Shown: positions 4,353 through 23,929 of the stretch, piece by piece
Numbering within the stretch: position 1 is the stretch's first letter
Layout of the letters: every line of letters starts with the position of its first letter
Assembly (NCBI GenBank): GCA_012841145.1
Contig: DUVH01000015.1
Span: 37,237 to 101,236, forward strand
Direction: 5' to 3'
DNA from: Clostridiaceae bacterium
Lineage (GTDB): Bacteria > Bacillota > Clostridia > Saccharofermentanales > DTU023
Length of the DNA: 64,000 bases
The notes under the pieces: model-generated
Database searches by the model: none
What the model was told of the DNA's origin: nothing
What the model saw: the letters and a program-made list of their open reading frames with translations, nothing else
Translations under genes and position numbers: made by a program

Positions 4353-5156
4353 TTACTCCACCGTGTCGAATGCGACGCAGCGGCAGAAGGCCGATTCACC
4401 ATACTGGAACTTCCACGGGAACGTTCCGAGGATCATGCGCTTGTTCTTAGGCACGATGTCGATTTCGCCGCCGAGACATTCAACGTGAATGATTTCCCAA
4501 GGCTGCGGGAAGACCCAGATGTGCATCGCTTGATACGTATCGGGCCATTTGTAGATCTCATTGAGTCCTTTGCCATAGCGCTCTCTCATAAACGCATCAC
4601 AACGCTCTGCTTCAAGAGGCTCCCAGTCACGGATTTTCGTATTCATCGGATGGTCGGCGGAGCCGGCATCGACAGCGATGTACTTGAGTTCCATTTCCTT
4701 CATCCAGTCGGGGAAATCGACTGAAGGACCGGGGTGACGAAGCATATAACGGCGCTCATCCGGCGTTTCCCCATCTAACGAATATTTGTGGTAACCCGTG
4801 TAGATGAAGATGATGTCGCCCTTGCGGATGTCCGCACGATCCATGAGATCTTGAGGCGTGTAGATCGACCAGTCTTCCGCGATATCGGAGATATCGACGA
4901 CGACGCCCGGTCCGACGAGTTTTTCCATCTCGAGCGATGCGATATCGCGTCCGCCCGTGTCAAAATGCTGCGGGCCGTCGAGGTGTGTTCCGACGTGGTT
5001 TGACGTCGTGATAATCATGCCGTTCGCCCCGTTAGGCGCCAAACGCTTGAAATATTTGACGTTCAAGGGCTCATAAGTCGGCCACGGAGGCGTCATATGA
5101 TTTGTGTTCAGTGTCAAGTCATACACTTTGATTTTGTCCCAATTTTTGAGTAACAT
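4353..5156 (-). CDS. cyclase-family metal-dependent hydrolase (kynurenine formamidase / isatin hydrolase-like)
   Basis: 267 aa. Carries the family signature HxGTHxDxPxH as HVGTHLDGPQHF. Last gene of the PucR-led minus-strand operon. Confidence 0.75.
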   Translation of the reverse strand: MLLKNWDKIKVYDLTLNTNHMTPPWPTYEPLNVKYFKRLAPNGANGMIITTSNHVGTHLDGPQHFDTGGRDIASLEMEKLVGPGVVVDISDIAEDWSIYTPQDLMDRADIRKGDIIFIYTGYHKYSLDGETPDERRYMLRHPGPSVDFPDWMKEMELKYIAVDAGSADHPMNTKIRDWEPLEAERCDAFMRERYGKGLNEIYKWPDTYQAMHIWVFPQPWEIIHVECLGGEIDIVPKNKRMILGTFPWKFQYGESAFCRCVAFDTVE

Positions 5157-5262
5157 AAAGCAATTCCTTTCATTCTTTACTTTTCAGGTTAGTAAAGCCT
5201 CTATTCTTTTCCGCCCTGTTATTGAAACGGGCGTACCTTCCTATTTGTTGCCGTTATCAGGC

Positions 5263-6525
5263 TCAGCCCAGCATTCCCTCGCTCTCGAGAAGCTCGACAT
5301 ACGCCTCTAAAGCGTCGGTAAAGCACTTCATCGGAGGATTGACGATACCAGCTCCCACCTGTCCGATACCGGCTCGTTTATGGGCGATACCAGTATTGAT
5401 GACGGGGAGGATTTGCGTCTCGACGACGAGACGAATATCGATACCTGTCGGTGTTCCGCGGAAATTCATCGTCGGCATCTTATAGATCACGCTCTCCTCA
5501 AGTGTAATCTCGTACATGCTCGTCGTGTAATTGACCGCGTCCTGCGGAGTTCCCCCGACGAACTGCACGATCGCGGGCGCCGTCGCCATAGCGAAACCGC
5601 CGATACCGTACGTCTCCGTAATGCAAGAGTCGCCGATGTCGGGGTTGGCATCGTCCGTGCTGTAGCCCGGGAAGTATAGACCGTCGATGATTGCGGCGGG
5701 ACCCGTGAACCAGCGGTCTCCGAGAGCGGCGACTCTGATGCCGAATTCCGTTCCGTTGCGCGCCATAGTGTAAACGATTGTCGAATGCTTAACTTTTCCG
5801 ACGGGATCCATCGCTGACTTGGCTGCCGGCATCGAGAGATTCAGGAAGAAGTGGTCGTTCGAATTCAGGAAATCGAAGACAGCAACTTGATCTTCTTTCG
5901 ATGCGTCTGTTTTGACGATGCTTGATGCAATCTCGCGGATAAACAGCGATGTCGCAGCTTTGTTGCGGTTGTGCACTTCATCGCCCATCTGAGCCGCTTG
6001 CGCGATCATGCTCTTGAGATCCAATGGACCGTAGATCTCCAACGTTTGCTTCATGATAGGATAGAGCGTTTTTTCCATCCATTTCAAATGCTTGATAACA
6101 TCTTCGCCATATGCACCGAAACGAAGGACGTTGCCGAGCCCCTCATTCATCGTGCAGTATGCAAAGTTGCCTTGTGCCTTGTTCTCAATGATAAAGACCG
6201 GCATCGATGCCGTTACGACACCCGCCATCGGTCCCACAGCCTGATGATGGTGGCAAGGATCGAATTCAATTTCGCCCGAAGCTGCAAGCTTCTCCGCCTC
6301 TTCCGGCGTCGCCGCAAGACCCTCATAGATCAGTCCGCCGATTACGGCACCGCGGAGCGGCCCAGACATCTTCTCCCACGTGATGGGAGGACCGGCGTGC
6401 ATGACGAGTTTCTTGTGCATGCCCGGAACAACATCTTTTGCTACGCCCATACCAACGAGTGTCGGCTGCGCATTCTGCATGATTTCCAGTGCTTTCCTGT
6501 TGGCGGCCTCAATAAAATTTGCCAT
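5263..6525 (-). CDS. DUF1116 (YlbE-like) protein
   Basis: 420 aa. Its sequence (AGPPITWEKMSGPLRGAVIGGLIYEG, DPCHHHQAVGPMAGV) and its position next to FdrA match the fdrA-ylbE-ylbF association known from E. coli. Confidence 0.75.
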   Translation of the reverse strand: MANFIEAANRKALEIMQNAQPTLVGMGVAKDVVPGMHKKLVMHAGPPITWEKMSGPLRGAVIGGLIYEGLAATPEEAEKLAASGEIEFDPCHHHQAVGPMAGVVTASMPVFIIENKAQGNFAYCTMNEGLGNVLRFGAYGEDVIKHLKWMEKTLYPIMKQTLEIYGPLDLKSMIAQAAQMGDEVHNRNKAATSLFIREIASSIVKTDASKEDQVAVFDFLNSNDHFFLNLSMPAAKSAMDPVGKVKHSTIVYTMARNGTEFGIRVAALGDRWFTGPAAIIDGLYFPGYSTDDANPDIGDSCITETYGIGGFAMATAPAIVQFVGGTPQDAVNYTTSMYEITLEESVIYKMPTMNFRGTPTGIDIRLVVETQILPVINTGIAHKRAGIGQVGAGIVNPPMKCFTDALEAYVELLESEGMLG

Positions 6526-6630: not shown

Positions 6631-6804
6631 CTATAACCCTTTCAGTCTGCCGAGCAGTGATGCCATTTTTTTGTCACCGCCGGCGGCTGGTTTCCAATCG
6701 ACGTGGATTGTTCCCACATCCTGACTGCGCAGCTCTTCGTAAAAAGATTCGAGCCCCATGTTGATCACTTTCAACTCCCGTTTAAATAGTTCGTTGACTG
6801 ACAT
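6631..6804 (-). CDS. small ORF (57 aa) between fdrA and the DUF1116 gene, below the ORF-track cutoff
   Basis: My translation is MSVNELFKRELKVINMGLESFYEELRSQDVGTIHVDWKPAAGGDKKMASLLGRLKGL*. A GGAGGAG RBS lies 7-8 nt upstream, and the ORF starts 15 nt after the fdrA stop. Confidence 0.6.
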   Translation of the reverse strand: MSVNELFKRELKVINMGLESFYEELRSQDVGTIHVDWKPAAGGDKKMASLLGRLKGL

Positions 6805-6819: not shown

Positions 6820-8373
6820 TTATGCGCTGACTTTTTCCATGATGAGATCGACAAGCCTGACCGCTTGCGCATTGGAAGGCATGACGATGACGCCTGCCTG
6901 TTCAAGACTTGCAATCGACTGATCGAGACCCTGGGGATCTTTATCCGTTCCCGTCACGGAAGCTACGACGACGAGATCTTTGCCTTCTGCCTTCAAGCGC
7001 TCGCGCGCTTCCGAGACCGATGCGGCGACAGCGCCGGCGGGGTTCTCGTGCGCCCCGTAGCCGATCACGACATCGCAGAGCACCACGGCTGTCGAGCTGT
7101 TGACGTGCGTCTTGAAGAAATCCGCTCTCGTCAAGGGATCGATCATCGGGTGCGGTCTGCCGCGTGTGAACTCGTCTTCTCCGAGATCGAGACAGATATG
7201 ACCGTTCAGACCTTCCAGATTCGCCAAGGCTCGGTCAGGCGTGAGCGGGATATTTGAATAGATCGGATAATGGTCTCCCAAATACTTGATCGCTTCGTCG
7301 GCGAGCGTTCCGCCCGTGTAAAGCGCACGCAAATATTTCTGACCTGCCGATAGTTTTGCCGCTGAGCCCGAAACGAGCTTTTCGATCTCCTCTTCTGACG
7401 CATCAAAACCGTCAAAATCCACAACTTTTTCACCGCGCAGTAATGCTACGGCTTTGCGAGCGGCGTCTTCCAAGCTTAAGCAAGGCGTTGCGCCGGCATC
7501 GACAATAGAAGCGGCGTCGCCTCCGATAAAATCGATGACGACGGGTTTGTCCGCCTGTTTCACCAAGTCGATGATCTTCTTTTCGACGGTAGGGTGAGGA
7601 GGCTTAGAAACGAGCACGATGACTTCCGTCTCAGGATCGTTCAGCAGCGCTTCAATACCCTGAATCATCATCAGTCCGCCGATCTCCTCGCGCAGGTCGC
7701 GACCGCCCGTACCTATGACTTGCGAGAGTCCCTCGCCGAGCTGATCGATGCGCACGGTGATCTCCTGCGTGCCTGTCCCCGAAGCGCCTACGAGACCGAT
7801 TTTCCCTCTCGATACAACGTTGGCGAAACATAGAGGGACACCGTTGATGATCGCCGTCCCGCAATCGGGTCCCATCATCAAAAGTCCCTTTTCTACTGCC
7901 ATCTTTTTCAGCCGGAGTTCATCGTTGATCGATACGTTATCCGAAAACATCATGACGTGGAGTCCAGCTCTAAGAGCTGTCTCCGCCTCTTCCGCGGCAT
8001 ACTGGCCGGGGATTGAGATCTGGACAAGGTTAGCGCCCTCGAGGTGATCGATCGCCGAACGGAGCGTCGGCGGTCGATAATCGCCAGCCGATGCGTCCTT
8101 TTTACGGTTAATCTGCTCCTCGAAAGACTCGACAAGCTGTTCCATCGTGACGAACTCTTCGTTGAACTTTGCCGCGATGAAGAGATCGTTCGGCGTAATA
8201 CTTTCGAGATTTGCGTCGAACATGTTGAGATTACGAACGAGATCTAAATTCAGATCAGTACCCATTCCGACGAGGACTTCCTCGACGCCTTCGATTGATT
8301 TCATTTCGCGAGAAATCAACATCAACGTTACAGAGTCGTAATAAGCATTTTTTCTTACTATACTTTGAATCAT
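6820..8373 (-). CDS. fdrA: FdrA-family protein (succinyl-CoA-synthetase-like / acyl-CoA synthetase fold)
   Basis: The track ORF extends to 8445. The ATG at 8373 (MIQSIVRKNAYYDSVTLML...) has an AAGGAGG RBS and forms an ATGA overlap with the stop of the upstream gene. Contains CoA-ligase-like motifs (GPDCGTAIINGVPLCFANVV, GLVGASGTGTQE). Confidence 0.85.
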   Translation of the reverse strand: MIQSIVRKNAYYDSVTLMLISREMKSIEGVEEVLVGMGTDLNLDLVRNLNMFDANLESITPNDLFIAAKFNEEFVTMEQLVESFEEQINRKKDASAGDYRPPTLRSAIDHLEGANLVQISIPGQYAAEEAETALRAGLHVMMFSDNVSINDELRLKKMAVEKGLLMMGPDCGTAIINGVPLCFANVVSRGKIGLVGASGTGTQEITVRIDQLGEGLSQVIGTGGRDLREEIGGLMMIQGIEALLNDPETEVIVLVSKPPHPTVEKKIIDLVKQADKPVVIDFIGGDAASIVDAGATPCLSLEDAARKAVALLRGEKVVDFDGFDASEEEIEKLVSGSAAKLSAGQKYLRALYTGGTLADEAIKYLGDHYPIYSNIPLTPDRALANLEGLNGHICLDLGEDEFTRGRPHPMIDPLTRADFFKTHVNSSTAVVLCDVVIGYGAHENPAGAVAASVSEARERLKAEGKDLVVVASVTGTDKDPQGLDQSIASLEQAGVIVMPSNAQAVRLVDLIMEKVSA

Positions 8374-9344
8374 ATACGATCCTCCTTTTTTACTATACAC
8401 TCCTCCTGCCGCGCCCAGCGCGAAAATATTGTCTGAATACACCAAACCCCGAACAGAAAATCCGCTCCGGATGTCGCACCGAACTCCAACACGCGCTCAA
8501 TCGCGCGATGAAGTTCGGGGATGTTCTGCGTTGCCAATGCATCTAATACCTTAAGATAACTGCAGCTCGCTTTCCCCCTTGATGCGTGTTTGAGCATTGA
8601 ATAGCTCACGATTGTCGTTCTCGATCTCGCGAGATCAACAACGTCATGCAAAAAATTCAACAAGGCATGATCATCACTGTGATTCCACAGGTTCCTGTAG
8701 TAAAGGGACAAAATAAACGCCGCAAGAAAATCATCGCACGAAGGTGTCAGCCCCGGCCCAAAACCGATGAGCAGCTCAGCTCTGCTAAGCGACAAGTCCC
8801 AATTTTTCCCCTCAACAGCTTCCAGAAATGAACAAATATCTCCCGTAATAAAACGCGCATAGATATTCGTGCACGAAGAAGGCTCGTTCGAGTCACCGTC
8901 AATGAAACGAATGACCGACGCAACACCGCCGGAGTCGAGTTCCAGTAAAGTCTTTTTGATCAAATCGAGCATTTCTTTGCTCGCACAGGTTACTTCTCCT
9001 GAGGGTACCGCAAGTTCCGGACTCCATACACGCGCATTTCGAAACCTGATGCGACTTTCGCTGTTCGGTAAGACAAACTCCATCTGTCCCCCATATAACA
9101 CGCTGTCATCATTTTCAAAAGGCCAGGCAGCGTGTGAAGACAAATCAACGATCATACCCATCGGCATTATGTCAAGATCGGTTCTGGCGATCGTCGCCAA
9201 TTCTTTATCCGGCGACAACAGATTGACAGCACCGCGAAAGATTGAGTGAACGCGAAATACAACATCGTCTCGCTGAAGCAGGAAATCATAGAGATCTTGC
9301 GACATCTGCAAAACACTGATCGTTCGCTCGAATCTTCCCGCCAT
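8370..9344 (-). CDS. DUF2877 (YlbF-like) protein
   Basis: ~324 aa. Start is ATG 9344 (or GTG 9347), sharing one base with the PucR stop (TGATG). Its stop overlaps the fdrA start (ATGA). The family call rests on my recollection of the sequence and on synteny with fdrA/DUF1116. Confidence 0.65.
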   Translation of the reverse strand: MAGRFERTISVLQMSQDLYDFLLQRDDVVFRVHSIFRGAVNLLSPDKELATIARTDLDIMPMGMIVDLSSHAAWPFENDDSVLYGGQMEFVLPNSESRIRFRNARVWSPELAVPSGEVTCASKEMLDLIKKTLLELDSGGVASVIRFIDGDSNEPSSCTNIYARFITGDICSFLEAVEGKNWDLSLSRAELLIGFGPGLTPSCDDFLAAFILSLYYRNLWNHSDDHALLNFLHDVVDLARSRTTIVSYSMLKHASRGKASCSYLKVLDALATQNIPELHRAIERVLEFGATSGADFLFGVWCIQTIFSRWARQEECIVKKEDRI

Positions 9345-11029
9345 CACCGAATAAGCTCCTTTATCCGAATCGCCAGTTGTATATTGAACGCCGTTTCAGG
9401 ATCTCGCAGATCAATCCCGTAAACATCGCGAATCCTGTTGATCCGATAAATAATCGTGTTGTAGTGCGTAAACAATATCTCCGACACGCGTTTCAAGTTA
9501 CCGCCGGAAGCGAAATAAACGCGCACTGTTTCGAGCAGATCGCCGTGCTGCCTGTGATCGTGTTCTTCAAGCGGATTAAGGATTTCATCCGCATAGGCAA
9601 GCGCCTCATCTCTGAGGAGCGGGTGTCCCAACACACGAAGCAATCCCAGATCATCGTAATAGAGAACGGGGTTATCCCTTTCCTGTCGGCTCATCAGTAT
9701 GCGAACAGTCTGCTCCGCCTGTTGTAAACTCATCGGCAAAGAGCGAAACGTCTCGACGCACGAACCGACTCCGATGAAAGTATAATCAAGCACGCCTTTC
9801 TCATCGATGCACTTGATCAGCGTATCGATAAATCGTTGCGCATCAGCCTCCCGCCTCTCGGATGTACACTCTTTATCAAACTGCAAGAGAAAGACGGCGC
9901 GATCACTTTTTCGCGTCACGAGAAAGTAGCCGTCGTACTCCTGCTTCAAGCGATTTGTGAGGTTTAAGAGATTCGTGTTGAGGTTCTTGGCCATGCGTGC
10001 GTTATTGGGCGTCAGCTGATACTGCCTATTCTGTTCCATCATGAGCACGACGCATTGGCTTGGAAGATCAGGATGAAACAGATAAAAATCGGCATTCTCG
10101 AGCGCTTTGTTCTGTTCTTCCCGATCATCACTGAGCAGCTGCTCGAGAAAGGTAGTCTGATGGACATTTTCTCGCTCTACGAGCGTAATACGATTTAAGA
10201 TATCAAGAGCGATCAGCGACGTAGCCGACTCGATCACGAATAAATCCTGCACGCGAATCACATTTTCCGTATCCCACAGATAGATGCTTCCGTAGTGCAT
10301 ATTGTCAAAGTAGATGGGAATCGCAAATCGTTTGACGGAATGCTCTGTCACGATCGACTCGCTGATACGCATATCGGGAGCTTGCGGGTAACGTCTTGAG
10401 AAAGCATTGGCCATCACATCCTTCAAATCATCCTCGATCATCGCCTCTTTATCACGATCCAGACAATAAAAGTGAACATCGCGGAAAATGTCATCACAGA
10501 TAGCGACGGGCACTCGAACGGAACGGTAGATCTGTTCTGCGATCGCTTTCATACCGCCATGACGCAACATGATATTGCGCACTTTCGAATTGAAATCATT
10601 GATATGACCCAGCAATTTAGTCTGCTCACCGATGATCCTGTTGAAAATCTCTTTAATCAGATCCCCATAGGGTACTGCTTGAGGAATTCTAATGATGGGG
10701 AACGAGATCTCATCGGCAATTTTCAGCACATTTTCAGGCACCTCGCTGATGTATCTCTGCGTCTTAATCCCCATTCCACAAACTTGTCGCTCCTTCAACT
10801 GAGGGATAAGGCGCTCAAATGCCCCAATATCACGACTGAACGTATACGCCGTCGTCAAAAGGAATTCACCGGGACGAACCCAGTCGACAATATCGGGAAC
10901 TTCAAGAACATTGACAGAGACAATCCTGTTGGTCAGACCGTCTTTCCCTGCCAACACTTCAGCATCTTTCAACAAACTGACTTGTAGAATATCTTTTAAT
11001 TCAATCATAAGTTTGTGATCGTTAGGCAT
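9344..11029 (-). CDS. PucR-family transcriptional regulator (purine catabolism regulator-like)
   Basis: 561 aa. Has the N-terminal PucR-type sensory region and the C-terminal PucR helix-turn-helix (LKRVSEILFTHYNTIIYRINRIRDVYGIDL). First gene of the operon. Confidence 0.8.
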   Translation of the reverse strand: MPNDHKLMIELKDILQVSLLKDAEVLAGKDGLTNRIVSVNVLEVPDIVDWVRPGEFLLTTAYTFSRDIGAFERLIPQLKERQVCGMGIKTQRYISEVPENVLKIADEISFPIIRIPQAVPYGDLIKEIFNRIIGEQTKLLGHINDFNSKVRNIMLRHGGMKAIAEQIYRSVRVPVAICDDIFRDVHFYCLDRDKEAMIEDDLKDVMANAFSRRYPQAPDMRISESIVTEHSVKRFAIPIYFDNMHYGSIYLWDTENVIRVQDLFVIESATSLIALDILNRITLVERENVHQTTFLEQLLSDDREEQNKALENADFYLFHPDLPSQCVVLMMEQNRQYQLTPNNARMAKNLNTNLLNLTNRLKQEYDGYFLVTRKSDRAVFLLQFDKECTSERREADAQRFIDTLIKCIDEKGVLDYTFIGVGSCVETFRSLPMSLQQAEQTVRILMSRQERDNPVLYYDDLGLLRVLGHPLLRDEALAYADEILNPLEEHDHRQHGDLLETVRVYFASGGNLKRVSEILFTHYNTIIYRINRIRDVYGIDLRDPETAFNIQLAIRIKELIR

Positions 11030-11559
11030 GATTTGTACTCCAGATCTATTTTATACGAATTCGACAGAAAATGATTTAGTTTTAAATAACAATGTCAAAA
11101 ATATTATATCACAGTCATGTGTGAAATTAGCACAGATTTTTATCATTAATTAACAATCTTCTTGCATAAAGTGATTGGTTTTTGAATTTTCATTTTAGTG
11201 ATTATTTATAATTAGACTCAAATTAAAAGAATAAGAACAAATCAAATGCCTCAAACGGCAGCGCCGCCGTATCTTGCACTTACGAAATGGCCGCATCGCA
11301 ATTATAACTCGAATCGCACAAAAAAACAGACGTGAATATCATCGTATTTGTTGATTGATACCAAATCTAAGTCAGAGAACTCTAATAACTTGTACCCAGT
11401 AACAAGGTTCTATTCCAATAAACGTGTTAAAATTGGTAATATCGAACTAGTATTGGTGGCTATATCGTCCGGATAGTCAGTTTCCTGACGGATAAACATC
11501 AATAAGAAAACGGCTCGAATTCAATCCGAAGAGAAAGTCTTTATCGCAAGGAGGTTTCT
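11030..11559. promoter_or_regulatory. 530-bp AT-rich divergent control region between the PucR operon and the Mo-hydroxylase operon
   Basis: Visibly much more AT-rich than the flanking coding DNA. I saw no credible ORF in it. It contains short hairpins (e.g. GTCAGtttcCTGAC near 11478-11491). It must hold both divergent promoters. Confidence 0.6.
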
Positions 11560-15462: not shown

Positions 15463-15464
15463 CG

Positions 15465-16001
15465 TTATGTCGTTCCGGTCTTATCCGAAAAAGGGGTTAA
15501 GCGATACGCAAGAAACCATGCGGTAACAGCCTTGAGAGCATCTCCCGGTAAAAATACAACCATCCCTGTCATGAGGATATTCCCAAAAGTTATTGTTTGA
15601 TTCAGATAGAAACGAAGAACCAAAGCCATGTACGGCAAACCTAAAATGTAGATTAGAAACGTAACGGCGGCAATATTAAGCGCCGTCCGGACACAGTTCC
15701 CTTTGTTTCTTTGCGTCAAAAAGGAAAGGAGCGGTGACGCGACCACAAAAGCGAGAACAAAACCGAAGCCGGGCGAAACGAAAGGCGATGAACCGCCTAG
15801 GATAATCTTCAAAAACGCATGGAGCAGCATAGCCAAACATGACGTAGCCGGTTTCAGAAGAAGTCCTGCCATAAGTACAGCGAGTGTCTGCAGCGTGATG
15901 GGAACAGGCCCGACAGGTATTCTGATAAAACCGAACACAAACGTCAGCACGCCGAACAAAGCGGCGTACGTCATCATTCTTGTCGTCACTTTCACCTTCA
16001 T
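15465..16001 (-). CDS. bioY: biotin transporter S-component BioY
   Basis: 178 aa, multi-pass membrane protein. BioY-like sequence (IRIPVGPVPITLQTLAVLMAGLLL). Adjacent to birA. Confidence 0.85.
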   Translation of the reverse strand: MKVKVTTRMMTYAALFGVLTFVFGFIRIPVGPVPITLQTLAVLMAGLLLKPATSCLAMLLHAFLKIILGGSSPFVSPGFGFVLAFVVASPLLSFLTQRNKGNCVRTALNIAAVTFLIYILGLPYMALVLRFYLNQTITFGNILMTGMVVFLPGDALKAVTAWFLAYRLTPFSDKTGTT

Positions 16002-16058: not shown

Positions 16059-17069
16059 CTAAAAGCTGACGAGGCTGATTTCACCCGATGTGATTTCGCG
16101 TATTTTGCCATCGGCATCGCAATAAGTGAGCGCGCCGTCATCCGAAATGCCGGTCGGAACGATCGTGCGGCCGTCATCAAGAACCACTTCCCTGTCGATA
16201 ATAAAACAGCGCTCACGATACTCGTCGAGATAATCCCGACCGGGGAGCTCGCTCATAATGCAAGTCAACTCATTAATCATCATCGCGACTAAAACGTTGC
16301 GATTAAACGTGAGATTGCCCTCTTCATCTTTTGCGAAAGCCGTCCCGTCGATACACATGTTCGTGTGATCCAAAGCATCGGATAGAGCGCCGACCTTTTC
16401 CCGCAACTCAGCAGGATAGCCTTGTTCAGGACGCTCCAAATTCAAACCGACACCTATTACAATTGCTTTTTCATCTGACAAATCACGTTGTGCTATCGCT
16501 TCAGTCAATATGCCGCCAACCTTTTTCCCATCAATGAAAATATCGTTCACCCATTTAACATCGGCGCGCACCCCTAACTCTCTTTCGAGAACACGACAAA
16601 TAGCAACAGCCGCCATCGTCGTCAGAAGCGAAGGAGGCTCTTCGCGATCCCAGGAAAAAGCGAGTGAAAAATAGAGTCCGACATGAGGCGGAGAATAAAA
16701 AGACTTACCACGGCGTCCTCTTCCGCCCGTCTGTCCGTTCGTAACGATGAGACACGGAATCTTTCCTTCGCCGACCGCCACCCTCGCGAAAAGGTTTGTC
16801 GAAGTAACTGTCTCAAAACAGCGAATATACAGGTCGCTCCAATCATCGGATAATCGACTCCTAATAGCTTCTTCCGAGAAAAGATACGGTTCGCTGACTA
16901 GGCGATACCCGCGATTCTGGACGCCTTCAATCACATACCCCTGACTTCTGAAAACGTCGATTACTTTCCATACGGCTGTACGTGATACGTCAAGTTTTGA
17001 TGCTATTTGCTCCCCCGATAGAGACTCTTCTGCTTCTTTAAGTAATTTCAAAATAATCTGATTGTTCAT
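16059..17069 (-). CDS. birA: bifunctional biotin-[acetyl-CoA-carboxylase] ligase / biotin operon repressor
   Basis: 336 aa. N-terminal winged HTH (LSGEQIASKLDVSRTAVWKVIDVFRSQGYVIEG), followed by a ligase core with GRGRRGKSF (the GRGRxGR motif). Confidence 0.9.
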   Translation of the reverse strand: MNNQIILKLLKEAEESLSGEQIASKLDVSRTAVWKVIDVFRSQGYVIEGVQNRGYRLVSEPYLFSEEAIRSRLSDDWSDLYIRCFETVTSTNLFARVAVGEGKIPCLIVTNGQTGGRGRRGKSFYSPPHVGLYFSLAFSWDREEPPSLLTTMAAVAICRVLERELGVRADVKWVNDIFIDGKKVGGILTEAIAQRDLSDEKAIVIGVGLNLERPEQGYPAELREKVGALSDALDHTNMCIDGTAFAKDEEGNLTFNRNVLVAMMINELTCIMSELPGRDYLDEYRERCFIIDREVVLDDGRTIVPTGISDDGALTYCDADGKIREITSGEISLVSF

Positions 17070-17201: not shown

Positions 17202-18680
17202 TCAGTCGATTGGCGGCGTAGAGGCCGGCGGCTTGCGGAACTTTGACAGCTGCTCGAATGCGTACGCGATCTCAATCAAAACAGGCTCGCTGAAAGGGCG
17301 TCCGATGATTTCAAGACCGACCGGAACGCCGACGGGTGCATCAGGAGCCGGTGCAAACCCTGCCGGAACGGCAATCGAAGGAAAGCCTGTCGCCGAACAT
17401 AGTACTCCGTTTCGCTGTTGCTGCCCTTCACCGATCAGGCAGACGAGCTGTTGTTGATGCGGATAGACGAGCGCATCCAATTGACGATCAGCCATGATGT
17501 TCATAATCCTCGTGCGCATCTCCGCCTGTCTGATTAATTTCTTATTGTATGCCGCCGTACCGACGTCCAGTTTCAAGGCCGTCAGCATATTATCTTCAAT
17601 GCCAGGATGATACTTCCCACCCGCCAGAATCTCCTCAACTGAATGGACGGGAGCGTCATCTCCAAGCGCCGAGAGATAGCCGTTGAGATGTGTTTTGAAA
17701 TCATCGAGATGGACGCTGGCATTCCGAATCATCTCATCGGAATCGATATCGTCATCGACCTCGATCAGTACGGCACCGCCCTCTTCAAAGACAGCCAGAG
17801 CTTCTTTCATCACGTCATTGACCGGTTCATTAATCTCCTCTTTGCCGAAAAAACTGCGTAAGATCCCTACTCGCTTACCTTGCAAACCGTCAAGCTTAAG
17901 AAACGGCATGTAACTTTCCGGTTGACGACCGATACTCCAAGCTGTCTCGGGATCATCTGGATCATAACCTGCGATCACGTCAAGCGTCCGCACGCAATCC
18001 TCAACCGTCCTGCAGATCGGTCCCGCCGTATCCTGCGTCAGACTGTACGGAACAATACCCGCACGGCTCACAAGTCCGACCGTCGGCCTTATACCTGCGA
18101 GACTGCACGCCGAAGCGGGACTCCTGATTGAATTGATTGTGTCGGTTCCGATACCGATAATTCCGATGTTGGCAGCGATCGCCGAACCTGTTCCGCCGGA
18201 AGAACCTCCGGGCGTACGCGTCAAATCATAAGGGTTGACCGTCTGTCCGAGCATGGAGCTGATCGTCTCGCCCCAGATCGCGAATTCATGGAGGTTCGTC
18301 TTTGCCAGAATGATGGCGCCTGCTTCCCGCAGGCGTTTCGTGATAAAAGCGTCCTCGTTAGGAACATAGCCCTCAAGCGAAGCAGATCCGGCCGTCGTCG
18401 CCATGTCAAACGTATTGACATTGTCTTTCAACATGACAGGGATGCCGTGGAGCGGTCCTTGCAGCTCGCCTGTCTCCGCCAACATTCGGTCGAGAGCGTC
18501 GGCTTCATCGCATGCTTTCGGGTTAACCTCTATAATTGAATGAAGCGAGGGGCCTTGTTTATCATAAGCTTCGATACGTTTTAAATACGCATCGACGAGT
18601 TCACGGCTTGTCACTTCGCCTGCCTTCATCGAGGCATGAACGAGCGCAACCGTCGTTTCCATGATGTCAAAATATTTCAT
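17202..18680 (-). CDS. amidase-signature family amidohydrolase
   Basis: 492 aa. Has the classic signature GGSSGGTGSAIAA and the Ser-cisSer-Lys context. Lies 74 nt downstream of the decarboxylase beta subunit on the same strand. Confidence 0.85.
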   Translation of the reverse strand: MKYFDIMETTVALVHASMKAGEVTSRELVDAYLKRIEAYDKQGPSLHSIIEVNPKACDEADALDRMLAETGELQGPLHGIPVMLKDNVNTFDMATTAGSASLEGYVPNEDAFITKRLREAGAIILAKTNLHEFAIWGETISSMLGQTVNPYDLTRTPGGSSGGTGSAIAANIGIIGIGTDTINSIRSPASACSLAGIRPTVGLVSRAGIVPYSLTQDTAGPICRTVEDCVRTLDVIAGYDPDDPETAWSIGRQPESYMPFLKLDGLQGKRVGILRSFFGKEEINEPVNDVMKEALAVFEEGGAVLIEVDDDIDSDEMIRNASVHLDDFKTHLNGYLSALGDDAPVHSVEEILAGGKYHPGIEDNMLTALKLDVGTAAYNKKLIRQAEMRTRIMNIMADRQLDALVYPHQQQLVCLIGEGQQQRNGVLCSATGFPSIAVPAGFAPAPDAPVGVPVGLEIIGRPFSEPVLIEIAYAFEQLSKFRKPPASTPPID

Positions 18681-18754: not shown

Positions 18755-19918
18755 TTATCCGAAAAAATTCAGCAACAACCCCGCGGCAACTGCCGAGCCG
18801 ATGACGCCGGCGACATTCGGCCCCATCGCATGCATCAACAGGAAGTTCGATGGATTGTACTTCTGCCCTTCTCTCTGGACGACGCGAGCCGCCATCGGCA
18901 CGGCAGAAACGCCGGCTGCACCGATCAACGGATTGATTTTACTCTTCGTCAAGAAACACATCAGTTTACCGAGCAAAACACCTCCCGCGGTTCCGATCGA
19001 GAATGCGAGAAGTCCGAGCCCGACGATCATTAGCGTTTGAGGGCGTAAGAATCGTTCGGCCGTGGCCGTCGCACCAACTGTCATGCCGAGAAAAATCGAG
19101 ACGATGTACATGAGCGAATCTTTGATCGCATTGACGAGAAGCGGTACTTTGCCCGACTCCTTCAATAAATTGCCGAGCATGAGCATACCGATCAGCGAAG
19201 CGGCGGAAGGAAGGAGCAGTATGGTAAACAGTGTGACAGCGATCGGAAAGATAATCTTCTCGTCTTGACTGACTTCGCGAAGCTGTTCCATTTTAATCAT
19301 ACGCTCTTTTTCCGTCGTCAGCACTTTCATAATCGGCGGCTGAATGATAGGCACAAGCGCCATGTACGAGTAGGCTGCAATCGCGATTGGACCAAGAAGG
19401 TCAGGCGCAAGACGCCCCGTGAGAAAGAGCGCTGTCGGGCCGTCTGCCCCGCCGATGATACCGATTGACGCCGCTTCCGCTCCCGTAAATCCTAGTGCGA
19501 TCGCGCCGATAAACGTAATAAAAATACCGAGCTGCGCGGCGGCTCCAAGGAGAAGGCTTCTCGGGTTGGCAATCAGCGGTCCGAAATCGGTACCGACTCC
19601 TATGCAGAGGAAGATGAGAGGCGGATAAATGCCGAGCGCAGTTCCTTGATAGAGGTAGTACAATAGACCACCAGGCTGTGTCCCTAAGGGCCCATCCATC
19701 AGTCCTGCAAGCGGCAAGTTGGTGAGCAGCATACCGAAAGCGATCGGAATCAATAAATACGGTTCGTAGCCCCTTTTCACACCGAGGTAGATAAAGGTAA
19801 GCGCGATTACCACCATGATCAATTTCCCGGGAATCATCACGCCGAAGAGCTCCGTATCGAAACGGAAAAGCTCCGTGATGCCGGTACTCCTAAAGAAATC
19901 TACGAGTATGTCGTGCAT
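18755..19918 (-). CDS. Na+-translocating decarboxylase beta subunit (OadB/MmdB/GcdB family)
   Basis: 387 aa polytopic membrane protein. Family-typical stretches include LLIPIAFGMLLTNLP and AAGVSAVPMAARV. Confidence 0.9.
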   Translation of the reverse strand: MHDILVDFFRSTGITELFRFDTELFGVMIPGKLIMVVIALTFIYLGVKRGYEPYLLIPIAFGMLLTNLPLAGLMDGPLGTQPGGLLYYLYQGTALGIYPPLIFLCIGVGTDFGPLIANPRSLLLGAAAQLGIFITFIGAIALGFTGAEAASIGIIGGADGPTALFLTGRLAPDLLGPIAIAAYSYMALVPIIQPPIMKVLTTEKERMIKMEQLREVSQDEKIIFPIAVTLFTILLLPSAASLIGMLMLGNLLKESGKVPLLVNAIKDSLMYIVSIFLGMTVGATATAERFLRPQTLMIVGLGLLAFSIGTAGGVLLGKLMCFLTKSKINPLIGAAGVSAVPMAARVVQREGQKYNPSNFLLMHAMGPNVAGVIGSAVAAGLLLNFFG

Positions 19919-19927
19919 AGAATGCTC

Positions 19928-20317
19928 CTATTTGAACGTGACAAGAAGATCGCCAGATGACACAACGACACCTTTGCTAGTGTGAACTTTGGCGATCTCG
20001 CCATCGTGCGGAGCGACAATTTCATTCTCCATTTTCATCGCTTCGATCACTACGAGAATATCACCTGCTTTCACTTGGTCGCCGGCAGCAACATCGACGC
20101 TGAGAATCGTGCCCTGTAACGGCGCTTTCACGTCATCCCCGCCGGAAGCTGCCGCAGGTGGAGACGCCTTCGGTGCGGATGTGACGGGCGCCACGGGCGT
20201 AGGCACGGCCTTTACGGGGCGCGGTATCGACGCCGAGCGCTCCGCTTTGACTTCCTCTACTTCAACGAAATATTCTTCTCCGTCAATGACGATACGAAAT
20301 GTCTTAACTGTGGACAT
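19928..20317 (-). CDS. biotin carboxyl carrier subunit of the decarboxylase (MmdC/OadA-C-terminal-like)
   Basis: The track ORF extends to 20446. The ATG at 20317 gives MSTVKTFRIVIDGEEYFVEVEEV..., an A/P-rich linker and the biotinylation motif EAMKMEN. Confidence 0.9.
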   Translation of the reverse strand: MSTVKTFRIVIDGEEYFVEVEEVKAERSASIPRPVKAVPTPVAPVTSAPKASPPAAASGGDDVKAPLQGTILSVDVAAGDQVKAGDILVVIEAMKMENEIVAPHDGEIAKVHTSKGVVVSSGDLLVTFK

Positions 20318-20336: not shown

Positions 20337-20702
20337 TTATAGCGAGCGCCTGAGCGACTCTTCAATGGCGGCGGCCTCCCATCCGGTTGACCCCGCTGAT
20401 TCGCGATAGATACGACGGACGACAAGCGTGACATCATCACCCGCATAAGCCTGAATCGCGGCGGATAGCGCGGCGATTTTTACTGAACTCAGTTTCGTCT
20501 CCGGCGCGTCGGTCGCGAGGAGTTCCGTCTCCTTCAGTTCGGGAGAATCGGAATCTTTCTTATTTTTTTTCTTTTTTCTATTCACGAAGAATGCCGTAAT
20601 ATCGACCAAGTACGAGATCGCAAGCAACACGATGAATACGAAAACCATATAGATAATCGACAATACGACGCTGTCTATCACTGTAATATTATCTGGCGTC
20701 AT
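20337..20702 (-). CDS. small membrane-anchor subunit of the decarboxylase (OadG/MmdD-like)
   Basis: The ATG at 20702 gives MTPDNITVIDSVVLSIIYMVFVFIVLLAISYLV (one TM helix), then a lysine run and a soluble tail. Size and position match gamma/delta subunits. Confidence 0.7.
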   Translation of the reverse strand: MTPDNITVIDSVVLSIIYMVFVFIVLLAISYLVDITAFFVNRKKKKNKKDSDSPELKETELLATDAPETKLSSVKIAALSAAIQAYAGDDVTLVVRRIYRESAGSTGWEAAAIEESLRRSL

Positions 20703-20712: not shown

Positions 20713-22275
20713 CTATAGGGGGATATTGCCATGTTTCTTGGCAATCTTCGGCATGCGTTTCCCGCGCAGCGAGTCGAAGGAGGAGATAAGGCGCTGACGC
20801 GTCTCCTCAGGCAAGATTACATCGTCAAGGTAACCGCGCTCCGCCGCTACAAACGGATTCATCATAGTCTCGGAATATTCGTCAATCTTCTCTTTACGTT
20901 TTTCTTCCGGATTGTCGGCGTTGCGAATCTCACGCGAGAAAATAATATTCGCGGCGCCCTCCGCACCCATGACGGCAATTTCCGCAGTGGGCCAGCCGAG
21001 CACGATGTCGCCGCCGAGATGCTTTGAGCACATTCCGATGTAGGCGCCGCCATAAGCTTTGCGGGTGATGACTGTTACTTTTGGAACGCTCGCTTCGCTA
21101 TAGGCGTAAAGCATCTTCGCGCCGTGACGAATGATTCCGCCGTACTCCTGCTGTGTGCCGGGGAGGAATCCCGGGACATCGACGAGTGTCAAAAGGGGCA
21201 CGTTAAACGCATCGCACATACGGATAAATCTCGACGCCTTGTCGGATGCATTGATATCGAGACAACCTGCCATCACGCGCGGCTGATTGGCGATGACACC
21301 GACACTTTCTCCGTTCAGGCGTATAAATCCCGTTACGATGTTTTGCGCAAAATAGGGCTGAACCTCAAACAGCGCCTCATCGTCCGCGAGCGCATAGATT
21401 AACTCTTTCATATCGTATGGCGTGCGCGGATCTTCCGGGATAATCGTATTCAGCGCTTTGACCATCTCATTAGGATCACGGAAACATTCCGTGCGCGCCG
21501 GCTTTTCGAGATTATTTTGAGGTAAGAAACTCAACAACTGTTTGATCTGAGCGAGGCACTCGTCTTCATCGGAAGCGCGGAAATGCGCGACACCGCTCAC
21601 ACTGTTATGCGTCATCGCGCCGCCGAGCGTCTGAGCAGAAACTTCTTCACCTGTAACAGCAAGAATGACCTGCGGACCTGTGATGAACATCTCACTCGTC
21701 TCATCAACCATAAACACGAAATCCGTAAGCGCAGGAGAATAGACGGCTCCGCCGGCACAGGGACCCATGATGACGGAAATCTGCGGGATGACGCCCGACG
21801 CCTTCGTATTGTTGTAGAAGATACGCCCGTACCCCGCCAGCGAGTCGACGCCTTCCTGAATACGTGCGCCGCCGGAATCGTTGATGGCAATCATCGGCGC
21901 GCCGACCTTGAGCGCCGCTTCCTGCGTACGCGCAATCTTATCGGCGTGCATTTCGCCCAAAGAACCGCCTATTACGGTAAAATCCTGAGCCGAGACATAG
22001 ACGAGTCGACCGTCGATCGTCCCGTAACCAGTCACAACGCCGTCGCCCGGGGCATTCTTCGAGTCCATTCCGAAGTTTGTCGCCCTGTGTTTGACGAAAA
22101 GGCCTGTCTCGACAAAACTTTTTTCATCGAGAAGCTTTTCGATACGTTCGCGTGCCGTCATCTTTCCTCGCGCGTGTTGCCGCTTAACGCCGGCTTCACT
22201 GCCGCCTGAAGAAAGCGTTTTCTTCATTTCAAGCAACGCTTTTTGTTTTTCATCCAACAAATTCGTATCCTCCAT
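20713..22275 (-). CDS. acyl-CoA carboxyltransferase, MmdA/PccB type (decarboxylase alpha subunit)
   Basis: 520 aa. High-similarity stretches to methylmalonyl-CoA decarboxylase alpha / propionyl-CoA carboxylase beta: DFTVIGGSLGEMHADKI, INDSGGARIQEGV, MGPCAGGAVYSPALTDF. Confidence 0.9.
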   Translation of the reverse strand: MEDTNLLDEKQKALLEMKKTLSSGGSEAGVKRQHARGKMTARERIEKLLDEKSFVETGLFVKHRATNFGMDSKNAPGDGVVTGYGTIDGRLVYVSAQDFTVIGGSLGEMHADKIARTQEAALKVGAPMIAINDSGGARIQEGVDSLAGYGRIFYNNTKASGVIPQISVIMGPCAGGAVYSPALTDFVFMVDETSEMFITGPQVILAVTGEEVSAQTLGGAMTHNSVSGVAHFRASDEDECLAQIKQLLSFLPQNNLEKPARTECFRDPNEMVKALNTIIPEDPRTPYDMKELIYALADDEALFEVQPYFAQNIVTGFIRLNGESVGVIANQPRVMAGCLDINASDKASRFIRMCDAFNVPLLTLVDVPGFLPGTQQEYGGIIRHGAKMLYAYSEASVPKVTVITRKAYGGAYIGMCSKHLGGDIVLGWPTAEIAVMGAEGAANIIFSREIRNADNPEEKRKEKIDEYSETMMNPFVAAERGYLDDVILPEETRQRLISSFDSLRGKRMPKIAKKHGNIPL

Positions 22276-22297
22276 CTACCAAATCAAATATTATTCA

Positions 22298-23929
22298 CTA
22301 TTTCTTAAAACTGTCGGGAATTTCATACAGACCGCCCGACCATTCGACGAGCTCATCAAGGGACTTAGCCGCGAGAAGGTCTTTTGTCGCGAGCGCCTGG
22401 TCAATGTCAAGATCGTCGGGGAGCGCGATTTTACCTGATTTCCTCAACTTTTCAATTACAGCCGGAGTCGCCATGTCACCGATCGGCGTCCCTTGCGCGA
22501 CAGCGCCCATCAGCGTCGTCCTCTCATCTTCGCTTTCAGCAAGATAGAGGTATGCGATCCCCTGCTCCGTCACGACGTGCGTTACATCTTCTCCGTAGAT
22601 CATGACAGGCGTGCTATCCAAACCTGCCTTCCTGCCGATCTCAACGGCATCAAGTTCGGGGACAAAATTGTTTCCGAACCGCCCGCTGCTTGACAACATC
22701 TGAACGATGAGTTTTCTTCCGCCTATCATGGAACGGCCCGGGTTCGGCATCATCGCTTTCCATGCCGGTGTCGAATGGCGTCGCCCTTGCGTGTTATGAC
22801 CCATGTTCGGAGCTCCTCCGAACCCCGACAGCCTGCCGCTCGTTACGGTCGAAGAGTTTGCAAGATAATCCATCTGCAGTGTCGCGCCTAAGAACAAATC
22901 GATACCGTATAATCCGGCCAACTGTGCGTATGCGCGGTTGGATCTTAGCGTTCCGTCATTTCCTGTAAAGAAGATATCGGAGCGAGCTTCCGTATACTTC
23001 TCCATCCCTTTTTCGCCGCCAAACGCGTAGATGCTCTCCACCCAGCCTCTTTCAATCGCCGGGATCATCATCGGATGAGGATTGAGAACCCAGTGACGGC
23101 AAATCTTTCCTTTCAAACCGAGGCTTTCACCGTACGTAGGGAGAATAAGTTCAATCGCAGCACCGTTATAGCCGATACCGTGATTGAGCGACATGACGCC
23201 GTGCTTGGCATAGATCCCCTTGATTGTCATCATCGCCATCAAAATATGTCTGTCGCGAATCTTCGCCGGATCTCTCGTGAAAAGCGCCTCCATCTGGTAC
23301 GGCTCATCCGATTGAACAACGATGTCAACCCAGTCTCCCGGGATATCGACACGCGGCAACGCGCCCTTACCGACAATCTCGTTGACTTGCACGATGACGA
23401 TACCGTCCTTAAACGCGGTCGCCTCGACGAGAATAGGCGTATCCTCCGTACTGTATCCGGTGAAAAGATTCCCGTCTTCATCGGCCATCTCCGCGGCGAC
23501 AAGACAGATATTGGGGATAAGGTCGACAAGCAGTCTCGCGTAAAGCTCGAGGTATGTGTGAATCGAACCTATCTTCAACTGATTGTCTTCAAGCATTTTT
23601 GCCAGTCGCACACTCTGCATGCCGGCAAACGCAAAATTGAGTTCATGCGCAATGCCTTTCTCGAAAAGGTCAAGATGCTCATCGCGCGATACGGCGGGGA
23701 TCATCATTGTGAGACCGTGCACAACAGCAGGGTCTACCGAAGCTAACGCCTGTGAAAGAAACGTCGCTTGCTTCTGGTTATCTCCTTCAAGCACTACTCG
23801 ATCGTTCGGACAGACAACTGCCTCCAGTACGGAGACAATATCTTCGGCTTGAACGATTTTCCCGCGCATCATATCCGAAGCGCGCTGCAGCCTTTGCTGC
23901 TTTCTAATCTTTTGCACATTCCATTCCAT
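22298..23929 (-). CDS. malonate decarboxylase alpha-subunit family protein (MdcA/MadA-like malonate:acetyl-thioester transferase)
   Basis: 543 aa. From my memory of MdcA it aligns along the whole length (LEGDNQKQATFLS, IHTYLELYARL, TEDTPILVEATAFKDGIVIVQVNEIV, LFTRDPAKI, KICRHWVLNPHP, GFGGAPNMG). First gene of the decarboxylase operon. Confidence 0.8.
   Translation of the reverse strand: MEWNVQKIRKQQRLQRASDMMRGKIVQAEDIVSVLEAVVCPNDRVVLEGDNQKQATFLSQALASVDPAVVHGLTMMIPAVSRDEHLDLFEKGIAHELNFAFAGMQSVRLAKMLEDNQLKIGSIHTYLELYARLLVDLIPNICLVAAEMADEDGNLFTGYSTEDTPILVEATAFKDGIVIVQVNEIVGKGALPRVDIPGDWVDIVVQSDEPYQMEALFTRDPAKIRDRHILMAMMTIKGIYAKHGVMSLNHGIGYNGAAIELILPTYGESLGLKGKICRHWVLNPHPMMIPAIERGWVESIYAFGGEKGMEKYTEARSDIFFTGNDGTLRSNRAYAQLAGLYGIDLFLGATLQMDYLANSSTVTSGRLSGFGGAPNMGHNTQGRRHSTPAWKAMMPNPGRSMIGGRKLIVQMLSSSGRFGNNFVPELDAVEIGRKAGLDSTPVMIYGEDVTHVVTEQGIAYLYLAESEDERTTLMGAVAQGTPIGDMATPAVIEKLRKSGKIALPDDLDIDQALATKDLLAAKSLDELVEWSGGLYEIPDSFKK

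Follow-up and report, generated by a model that had tools for sequence, protein, structure and literature searches.

A clostridial gene block predicted to ferment a pyrimidine base anaerobically through malonate to acetate

We analysed a stretch of 64,000 nucleotides from a Clostridiaceae bacterium (assembly GCA_012841145.1, contig DUVH01000015.1, positions 37,237 to 101,236), here called the window, in which an initial annotation made from the letters alone had read a 20-kb block of genes as a route from an N-heterocycle through malonate to acetate. Gene families were called from the listing of open reading frames (ORFs) and from Pfam and NCBIfam profile searches, which covered every gene of the block and, elsewhere in the 64-kb window, the ORFs of at least 150 aa. 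The block holds 19 genes, and the gene list, strands and families given in the initial annotation were confirmed for every one of them. They are arranged in three units, located on the minus strand at 4353-11029, on the plus strand at 11560-15394 and again on the minus strand at 15465-23929. The flanks are of housekeeping type, with rimP/nusA and a tRNA-Arg on one side and alpha/beta hydrolase, MatE, TPR and glycine-cleavage genes on the other, and for this reason the block was delimited at 4353-23929. From its content and context it is most likely, in this uncultured digester bacterium, an undescribed variant of the oxidative pyrimidine pathway, with at least two predicted new enzyme functions.

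Nearest to rimP, on the minus strand, lies the gene of a metal-dependent amidohydrolase of the cyclase family (4353..5156; PF04199, 3.8e-32, 112 bits against a cut-off of 23), which we propose as an analogue of barbiturase. Its membership of the PF04199 family was established by the domain, by the retained HxGTHxDxPxH metal motif (NHVGTHLDGPQHF) and by the fold of its AlphaFold model (pLDDT 79, pTM 0.81). Mn-dependent isatin hydrolases were the structures closest to the model (E 1e-10, TM 0.61-0.63), with kynurenine formamidases ranking behind them, and the protein remained under the arylformamidase equivalog cut-off (46.5 versus 223). Isatin hydrolases open a lactam ring; kynurenine formamidase, which belongs to the cyclase family too, cleaves a linear amide by hydrolysis. 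Barbiturase itself, which has the cyanuric-acid-hydrolase/AtzD fold, had no family match among the scanned ORFs of the window, and it is the cyclase-family hydrolase that occupies the conserved position.

The same strand carries, behind the cyclase gene, an AllG (DUF1116) subunit similar to oxamate carbamoyltransferase (5263..6525; PF06545, 6.1e-101; 46% identity to Escherichia coli AllG/YlbE), an AllF (FdrA) subunit with CoA_binding and Ligase_CoA domains (6820..8373; NF004760 FdrA, 512 against a cut-off of 433) and an AllH (DUF2877) subunit (8370..9347; PF11392, 1e-23; 34% identity to E. coli YlbF in the C-terminal domain). The ORF of AllF extends to 8445; the start of E. coli FdrA aligns with Met25, and from there the identity is 38%. 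Judged by subunit composition the window thus encodes an AllFGH complex, with AllF, AllG and AllH together. The initial annotation had mentioned, as a proposal, that FdrA, YlbE and YlbF of E. coli act on oxalurate; they do act on it, and this is no longer merely proposed, given that the purified proteins, now named AllF, AllG and AllH, form oxamate and carbamoyl phosphate when supplied with oxalurate and phosphate (PMC11326118). The identities of the window proteins to the three E. coli subunits leave room for a changed acyl specificity. A 350-aa protein encoded after the permease in a Lachnospiraceae locus (L089; related loci are numbered with the prefix L) was considered as a divergent AllH and rejected by comparison.

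Between AllG and AllF there is a 57-aa ORF (6631..6804, minus strand), which had been listed before simply as an ORF and turned out to be a real conserved gene. It shares 51% identity with residues 511-555 of E. coli FdrA (E 1e-13), that is, with the C-terminal tail of AllF, and it is conserved at 46-96% identity in related loci. It can also be aligned with residues 1-56 of the 472-aa AllG of L131 (8545-9963), and its tblastn matches in L086 fall at the start of a 474-aa AllG; the AllG of L132 is likewise 472 aa long. The segment stands free in the window, in L084 and in L089, and in E. coli it makes up the C-terminal end of AllF (L128, 6681-8348). Considering that it is fused to AllF in E. 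coli and to AllG in some Firmicutes and is free here, as a detached AllF C-terminal/AllG N-terminal segment, this distribution gives a Rosetta-stone hint and suggests that the small subunit bridges the contact between AllF and AllG.

The E. coli allFGHK operon includes a carbamate kinase (PMC11326118). In L133 an arcC carbamate kinase gene (TIGR00746, 419 against a cut-off of 358) is found directly after the cyclase and before a CN-hydrolase; this arrangement mirrors allFGHK and fits carbamoyl phosphate as the product, in keeping with the earlier suggestion that the FdrA/DUF1116/DUF2877 proteins strip a carbamoyl group. Genes of allantoin metabolism (allB/C/D/E) were found neither in the window nor in the Pfam-annotated related loci.

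The third unit, on the minus strand, contains an amidase-signature (AS) amidase (17202..18680; PF01425, 2.7e-96, 324 bits), proposed as a malonamate amidohydrolase. The GGSSGG motif is intact at residue 158 and, by PF01425 together with the GGSS[GS]G pattern, the protein belongs to the amidase-signature family. In a comparison made with solved structures, the nearest was peptide amidase, a primary-amide hydrolase (3e-89). This third hydrolase is an AS amidase in the window, L089, L109-114, L029 and L031, a CN-hydrolase in Alkaliphilus metalliredigens (L084) and in L133, and an M42 peptidase in L131, all three being families of linear-amide or carbamoyl hydrolases.

The rest of the third unit encodes a malonate module and genes of biotin supply. 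An MdcA-type malonate transferase (22298..23929; PF16957, 8.8e-257; TIGR01110, 807 against a cut-off of 789), proposed to work as an acetyl-CoA:malonate CoA-transferase, is followed by an MmdA-type acyl-CoA carboxyltransferase proposed to act on malonyl-CoA (20713..22275; Carboxyl_trans, 9.1e-202; TIGR01117, 856, under the cut-off of 999), an OAD-gamma-type membrane anchor (20337..20702; PF04277, 2.5e-10; a 121-aa gene call from L001), a biotin carboxyl carrier protein (BCCP) with an EAMKME motif (19928..20317; Biotin_lipoyl, 3.2e-18; a 129-aa gene call from L001) and the beta subunit of a Na+-translocating carboxybiotin decarboxylase (18755..19918; PF03977, 3.1e-156; TIGR01109, 476 against a cut-off of 191). 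Beyond the amidase are found BirA, a biotin-protein ligase/repressor (16059..17069; HTH_11, BPL_LplA_LipB and BPL_C), and the biotin transporter S component BioY (15465..16001; PF02632, 9.8e-22), for which an alternative start gives 169 aa. MmdA lies directly downstream of MdcA in every case (L005-L009, L089/90, L136 and L137). Among the scanned window ORFs there was no family match for MdcC, the acyl carrier protein (ACP), nor for MdcD/E, MdcB, MdcG or CitG. With MdcA as the only Mdc component, the window does not appear to encode a biotin-independent Mdc decarboxylase and, with a fused MmdA-type carboxyltransferase and neither ACP nor MadH, it does not look like a Mad system of the Malonomonas type either; the beta subunit reached 184 against the cut-off of 597 for TIGR03136. 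What the genes do predict is a four-subunit Na+-translocating Mmd, formed by carboxyltransferase, beta pump, biotin carrier and small anchor.

In the related loci this terminal module takes other forms. The MdcA and Mmd-type pump of the window are also present in L089, while L131, and also L130, carry a complete biotin- and ACP-dependent Mad decarboxylase of the Malonomonas type, with OAD-beta, a biotin carrier, MdcA, ACP, two carboxyltransferase subunits (MadC/D), MadH, MdcG and CitG, the MdcA of L131 reaching 887 bits against the cut-off of 789; in L084, L029 and L109-114 a type III CoA-transferase is found. Taking into account that two mechanistically different malonate decarboxylases attach to the same core, we consider this strong evidence for malonate as the product of that core, and the three different malonate-consuming modules upheld what had been proposed for the carbon skeleton.

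The plus-strand unit encodes the three subunits of a molybdenum (Mo) hydroxylase: a FAD subunit (11560..12411; FAD_binding_5, 7.5e-49, and CO_deh_flav_C), a 2x[2Fe-2S] subunit (12415..12972; Fer2_2, 6.7e-32, and Fer2) and a molybdenum cofactor (Moco) subunit with Ald_Xan_dh_C, MoCoBD_1 and MoCoBD_2 domains (12980..15394), proposed as a uracil/thymine C6-hydroxylase. The Moco subunit was below the cut-off of every characterised equivalog of NCBIfam. The best was XdhA, with 467 versus 780 bits (NF043082), and the other profiles of xanthine dehydrogenase (XDH) gave 436 versus 916 (NF007426), 400 versus 784 (TIGR03196, pucD) and 256 versus 850 (TIGR02965). By this curated test it is apparently not a bona fide xanthine dehydrogenase, which favours the interpretation of the initial annotation. 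The closest solved structures were 4-hydroxybenzoyl-CoA reductase and quinoline oxidoreductase and, when the active-site segment was compared with the PDB, nicotinate dehydrogenase and others ranked above XDH. In the window subunit and in three cluster orthologues 37-43% identical to it, the GGxFGxK motif is followed by Ala, the position equivalent to R880 is Thr, Ser or Ala (gap-free count from RGFG) and the RGFG motif, with the equivalent of Phe914, is kept. Glu (bovine E802) and Arg (R880) are the canonical purine-binding residues of XDH, and the residues compared here were mapped by motif counting. E. coli XdhA was tried as a reference for the E802 position and proved a poor one, as it carries Gln instead of Glu. 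A 726-aa ORF upstream of AllF in L031 was also considered as a Mo hydroxylase and rejected.

A further indication of the nucleobase came from the transporters. Six NCS2 permeases linked to the cluster in six architectures scored 226-386 bits against UraA, less against RutG and 108-227 bits against xanthine permease; considering that all six remain under the UraA equivalog cut-off of 477, these scores are a ranking and not an identification. By this ranking the permeases look more like uracil/pyrimidine permeases than xanthine permeases, and it favours the pyrimidine-like substrate that had been suggested. The permease gene stands directly after the cyclase in many close relatives (L096-L118). 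At the corresponding position the window has nothing but a tRNA-Arg and three direct repeats of 25 nt, and this lineage appears to have lost or relocated the uracil-type NCS2 permease.

Another N-heterocycle that gives (substituted) malonate might be the real substrate, be it thymine only, 5-substituted uracils, 4,6-dihydroxypyrimidine, or barbiturate-like or other xenobiotic or plant heterocycles. Such a ring would suit a hydroxylase that matches no characterised equivalog and permeases that score below the UraA cut-off, and an MmdA-type carboxyltransferase would suit thymine-derived methylmalonyl-CoA. We find it quite improbable, taking into account that in guts and digesters uracil far exceeds the other candidates in abundance, that the order uracil, RutG, xanthine held for six of the six permeases and that MdcA passes the malonate equivalog cut-off.

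The hydroxylase and AllFGH could also be explained if the upstream half were a purine/ureide unit, in which a xanthine-type dehydrogenase and an oxalurate-cleaving AllFGH would lead from oxalurate to oxamate and, via the amidase, to oxalate, the malonate/methylmalonyl-CoA decarboxylase operon being merely adjacent. PucR and the XDH architecture suit purine catabolism, and the type III CoA-transferase of some variants reaches 369 bits against CoA:oxalate CoA-transferase. In addition, oxamate/carbamoyl phosphate is the sole proven substrate pair of AllFGH (PMC11326118), and the block of L132 lies beside genes like ygeW, ygeX and ygeY of reductive urate metabolism (PMC12507026). However, the window has no genes of the allantoinase, allantoate, ureidoglycolate or uricase kind, and these enzymes do not fit any anaerobic route that leads from a purine to oxalurate. 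The cluster permeases are of uracil type, the Moco subunit fails the XDH cut-offs and apparently has no equivalent of the XDH Glu (by motif counting), and modules specific for malonate share an operon with the core in three forms that are independent of each other. There is also no oxalyl-CoA decarboxylase, and biotin carboxyltransferases cannot act on oxalyl-CoA. On these grounds the route through oxalurate and oxalate was rejected as very improbable.

The association of the modules was followed with linkage searches anchored separately on the amidase, the cyclase and MdcA, the amidase set being composed of one genome per species. Each anchor recovered the other modules, in unrelated lineages and in differing gene orders. 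In the Lachnospiraceae L089 and L090 it was possible to see all three units and a transporter as one collinear array on a single strand, MdcA-MmdA-gamma-BCCP-beta-amidase-AllF-orf57-AllG-cyclase-FAD-FeS-Moco-NCS2 permease. Orthologues of the amidase lie inside the full block in L004-L007, next to the hydroxylase alone in Peptoniphilaceae (L011, L015), next to MdcA in a deltaproteobacterial metagenome-assembled genome (MAG; L024) and next to cyclase-AllG-orf57-AllF(-AllH) in Clostridium sp. Cult2 (L029), in Oscillospiraceae (L031/L032) and in L034; the orthologue of Synergistaceae L012 is accompanied by a carboxylate transporter, a type III CoA-transferase and a PucR regulator. Cyclase orthologues of more than 58% identity are widespread among anaerobic Firmicutes. 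The cyclase comes directly after AllG in 11 of about 12 distinct architectures and has the three-subunit hydroxylase within 10 kb in about 10 of them. With the MdcA anchor, the arrangement of the window was found again in L137. The modules re-associate recurrently, in varied order and with non-homologous substitutes, in Clostridia, Synergistaceae, Ignavibacteriales and a deltaproteobacterium, and the cluster is common in gut Lachnospiraceae and digester Clostridia. Cultured organisms are among its carriers, namely Alkaliphilus metalliredigens QYMF (CP000724, 722-743 kb), Clostridium sp. Cult2 and Thermoanaerobacteraceae SP2. Judged from these neighbourhoods, the co-localisation of the three units, already expected in the initial annotation, is far beyond chance. 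Its core is the XDH-like hydroxylase with AllF/G(/H) and the cyclase, around which the peripheral steps are, by their predicted families, swapped for non-homologous proteins of equivalent chemistry.

All the comparative tests support the earlier interpretation of the block. A route from nucleobase to malonate to acetate is, as an overall reading, highly likely, and the block probably works as a single catabolic system for the anaerobic fermentation of a pyrimidine base (uracil most likely, thymine perhaps also) to acetate, CO2 and ammonia. The specific scheme through uracil, barbiturate, ureidomalonate and malonamate is, on balance, the best-supported mechanism; all its substrates and the order of its hydrolytic steps are read from context, on top of the observed gene content, families, co-localisation and non-orthologous replacements. 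In this scheme the three-subunit Mo hydroxylase would hydroxylate uracil (or thymine) at C6, giving barbiturate in the case of uracil, and the isatin-hydrolase-like cyclase-family enzyme would open barbiturate to ureidomalonate (malonurate). AllF/orf57/AllG/AllH, as a paralogue of the oxamic transcarbamylase of E. coli, whose oxalurate is one carbon shorter, would then convert ureidomalonate and phosphate to carbamoyl phosphate and malonamate, and a carbamate kinase encoded elsewhere in the genome would turn the carbamoyl phosphate into ATP. Malonamate would be split by the amidase into malonate and ammonia. Considering that no ACP partner is present here, MdcA is expected to act as an acetyl-CoA:malonate CoA-transferase, moving CoA from acetyl-CoA to malonate, and the complex of MmdA, gamma, biotin carrier and beta would decarboxylate malonyl-CoA to acetyl-CoA and CO2 with export of Na+. 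BirA and BioY would attach and supply the biotin, and PucR would regulate the block. The predicted net conversion is uracil to acetate + 2 CO2 + 2 NH3 + 2[H], with one ATP from substrate-level phosphorylation and a Na+ gradient. Extended to anaerobic Firmicutes of the gut and of digesters, the proposition becomes more tentative: they may ferment uracil for energy by means of three hitherto unrecognised enzyme activities, a dedicated Mo-dependent uracil C6-hydroxylase, a cyclase-family "barbiturase" and an AllFGH paralogue acting as ureidomalonate (malonurate) phosphorylase/malonamate carbamoyltransferase, conserving ATP through carbamate kinase and a Na+ gradient through decarboxylation of malonyl-CoA.

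Several observations weigh against this scheme and reduce our confidence, less in the overall reading than in its single steps. Both PucR regulators and enzymes of XDH type have a classical association with purines, the residue mapping of the Moco subunit leans on motif counting, and the permease scores are all sub-threshold. The 64-kb window has no nucleobase permease by Pfam scans and no carbamate kinase by tblastn and Pfam, and a carbamate kinase is clustered in only one of the 12 architectures (L133). AllH is missing from the Lachnospiraceae operon of L089/L090, whereas the E. coli enzyme depends on the full set of three subunits. For the type III CoA-transferases, the scores against oxalate, glutarate and mesaconate enzymes are about the same. 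In Lutispora (L013/L014, about 8258-19400) an amidase orthologue of 67% identity lies beside a genuine methylmalonyl-CoA operon, which ties this amidase to a genuine methylmalonyl-CoA pathway in some lineages; its place there is between formate-THF ligase and an operon of methylmalonyl-CoA mutase, MmdA, beta and BirA. Many other amidase orthologues (L016-L028) have unrelated neighbours. An Erysipelotrichaceae MAG (L136, 10001-16650) carries a stand-alone operon LysR-MdcA-MmdA-gamma-BCCP-beta-BioY-BirA, so that the malonate module would be autonomous, recruited to the nucleobase module by some lineages and not obligate. Finally, L130 has the cyclase with an M42 peptidase and Mad, and neither AllFGH nor XDH within 10 kb; from this content the cyclase could act later than proposed, the roles of the cyclase and the variable hydrolase could be swapped, or there could be a purely hydrolytic branch.

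The stand-alone operon of L136 and the unrelated neighbours of the amidase in L016-L028, together with the result that the intergenic regions of the block share no regulatory motif, are what would be expected if the modules were independent and juxtaposed without any metabolic link. This reading of chance neighbours was rejected and is scarcely credible in the face of the single collinear operon of L089/L090 and of the re-association across lineages in different orders and with non-homologous substitutes.

The content of L130 also bears on the order of the steps. The same passage from pyrimidine through malonate to acetate could run with the enzymes assigned otherwise; for instance, the ureidomalonase or the ring opener would be the AS amidase, CN-hydrolase or M42 enzyme, and the cyclase would be a malonamidase acting right after AllFGH, or a parallel, purely hydrolytic branch would convert ureidomalonate to malonate and urea. 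The constant attachment of the cyclase to AllG would agree with such a change, as would its occurrence in L130 with only an M42 peptidase and a malonate decarboxylase, and the cleavage of a linear amide by kynurenine formamidase, its relative. The aerobic ureidomalonase is also reported to be an amidase-signature enzyme. On the other hand, the cyclase model is closest to the lactam-opening isatin hydrolases, the amidase's nearest solved relative frees ammonia from primary amides, and the carboxylate transporter and CoA-transferase next to the amidase of L012 are those expected for conversion of an amide-acid to a di-acid. We know of no ring opener among AS amidases, CN-hydrolases or M42/M20 enzymes, for which reason the opening of the ring must fall to another enzyme. 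Altogether the reassignment of steps seems rather unlikely, and we retain the scheme in which the cyclase opens barbiturate and the amidase acts on malonamate.

The biochemistry of the oxidative pyrimidine route has been known since the 1950s, only in aerobes, and its first enzyme is not known to have been assigned a gene. The aerobic pathway of Rhodococcus and Mycobacterium shares with our proposal the sequence from uracil to barbiturate and ureidomalonate, malonate as carbon product and, as reported for the aerobic pathway, the participation of an amidase-signature enzyme. The block differs in having a cyclase-family, isatin-hydrolase-like enzyme instead of the barbiturase of AtzD or "Toblerone" fold, in the proposed departure of the ureido group as carbamoyl phosphate and not as urea, with malonamate as a new intermediate, and in being hosted by strict anaerobes with an energy-conserving malonate decarboxylation attached. 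The full-text literature open without subscription yielded no description of an anaerobic oxidative pyrimidine route and, as the initial annotation had supposed, no characterised system that joins these modules. In its introduction, a 2025 publication on the anaerobic degradation of urate lists four pyrimidine routes and no others, namely oxidative, reductive, Rut and URC, and refers to a 2015 review for the first of them; it comes from a laboratory that works on nucleobase catabolism (PMC12507026).

With E. coli allFGHK the block shares homologues of AllF, AllG and AllH and the logic of obtaining ATP by phosphorolysis of an N-acylurea (PMC11326118). Unlike that operon, it has no allantoin genes, its AllF tail is split off as the 57-aa protein, a cyclase-family hydrolase and a Mo hydroxylase are its constant partners, and its proposed substrate is the C3 compound ureidomalonate instead of oxalurate. 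The reductive uric acid pathway of E. coli and Clostridioides difficile is likewise anaerobic, starts with a member of the XDH family and harvests the ureido group with a carbamoyltransferase and carbamate kinase (PMC12507026). Its first step is reductive, however, and its enzymes (XdhD, YgfK, SsnA, HyuA, YgeW, YqeA, YgeY, YgeX) and products (diaminopropionate/pyruvate) differ; none of its genes was detected in the window by Pfam scans.

As regards the malonate module, the fermentation of malonate by Malonomonas and Sporomusa has in common with the block an MdcA/MadA-type transferase, a biotin carrier and a Na+-pumping beta subunit. Mad of Malonomonas rubra is a biotin- and ACP-dependent Na+ pump, whereas the window contains neither ACP nor ACP-maturation genes and has a single MmdA-type carboxyltransferase, so that its system should work on free malonyl-CoA; moreover, it is set in a nucleobase cluster and not in an operon of malonate uptake. 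The methylmalonyl-CoA decarboxylase Na+ pumps of Veillonella parvula and Propionigenium modestum have the same set of subunits (MmdA, gamma/delta anchor, biotin carrier and beta) and also accept malonyl-CoA. In the window the pump is linked to MdcA and not to mutase or epimerase, in contrast with L013 of Lutispora, where mutase and Mmd are together. The operon of L136 is, by its predicted products, an ACP-free, CoA-dependent and Na+-pumping malonate fermentation module, and operons of this type may be the genetic basis of the malonyl-CoA route reportedly described at the physiological level for Sporomusa malonica.

If the proposed scheme is correct, the cluster gives candidate genes for every step of an oxygen-free oxidative pyrimidine route and shows a way in which ATP as well as a sodium gradient could be gained from a pyrimidine ring. 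It also predicts a second class of substrate for the AllFGH transcarbamylase and a new role for the poorly understood cyclase family. The cluster may influence the turnover of uracil, thymine and possibly fluoropyrimidines in the gut, as well as the release of nitrogen from nucleic acids in anaerobic habitats. Each of the proposed steps is directly testable with commercially available substrates.

Regarding the control of the block, a regulator of the PucR family (9344..11029, minus strand; PucR, GGDEF_2 and HTH_30 domains by Pfam) adjoins AllH, and this gene is kept in most architectures. An AT-rich intergenic region (11030..11559; GC 0.435 in 10001-12000) separates pucR from the divergent hydroxylase genes; its one good promoter-like site lies at 11098-11071 on the minus strand. 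The convergent Moco and bioY genes are separated by a terminator (15422..15463) made of a hairpin, with the inverted repeat AGTGTCCCGGA / TCCGGGACACT, and a T-run, TTTTTT. The scans for promoter and terminator consensus gave counts not above those of shuffled sequence and are therefore uninformative on operon structure, and a k-mer search of the intergenic regions of the block found no common regulator site. The amidase occurs with exact sequence on three metagenome contigs, one of which (L001) is an independent copy of the block, and the block recurs in related MAGs as well. The nearest named relatives are MAGs of uncultured "Clostridiaceae", Saccharofermentanales and Mageeibacillus from anaerobic digesters, with 74-90% amidase identity.

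Some neighbouring genes of the related loci were also noted. In L086 a thiolase and a DUF35-like zinc-ribbon protein are encoded upstream of AllH (4358-5933), and a 186-aa, probably membrane-anchored protein is encoded between the cyclase and the hydroxylase (10904-11464); the latter was considered as a relative of the amidase and rejected, the sequences being unrelated. The Ignavibacteriales MAG L132 carries at 1-4183 genes of the PALP, M20 peptidase and OTCase-like types, the Pfam families of YgeX, YgeY and YgeW, which directly adjoin an AllH-AllF-AllG-cyclase-XDH-permease-PucR block. Its carbamoyltransferase scored best as ornithine carbamoyltransferase, under all NCBIfam cut-offs. In E. 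coli, YgeX, YgeY and YgeW belong to the reductive uric acid pathway (PMC12507026), and purine and putative pyrimidine catabolism appear to be clustered together in L132.

In the window itself, the spacer between the cyclase and rimP (3910-4352) contains the tRNA-Arg(CCT), on the minus strand at 3910-3986, and the three direct repeats (TTTTTCAATTAATATCGAATTTCTG-like), at 4050, 4122 and 4179. Outside the block, a plus-strand cluster of fabH, a fabK-like NMO gene, fabD, fabG, fabF and fabZ is followed by a MarR regulator (43055-49022), and acetyl-CoA carboxylase genes were found nowhere in the 64 kb. On the minus strand, 33085-39774 encodes an ECF-type transporter set (S component, duplicated ABC ATPase and CbiQ-like T component) and then two DUF4430 proteins, one of them of 744 aa with a PQQ-like beta-propeller. 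At the edge of the window (28-1206, plus strand) lies a 392-aa ORF with no Pfam match, which is 57% conserved in the relative L095.

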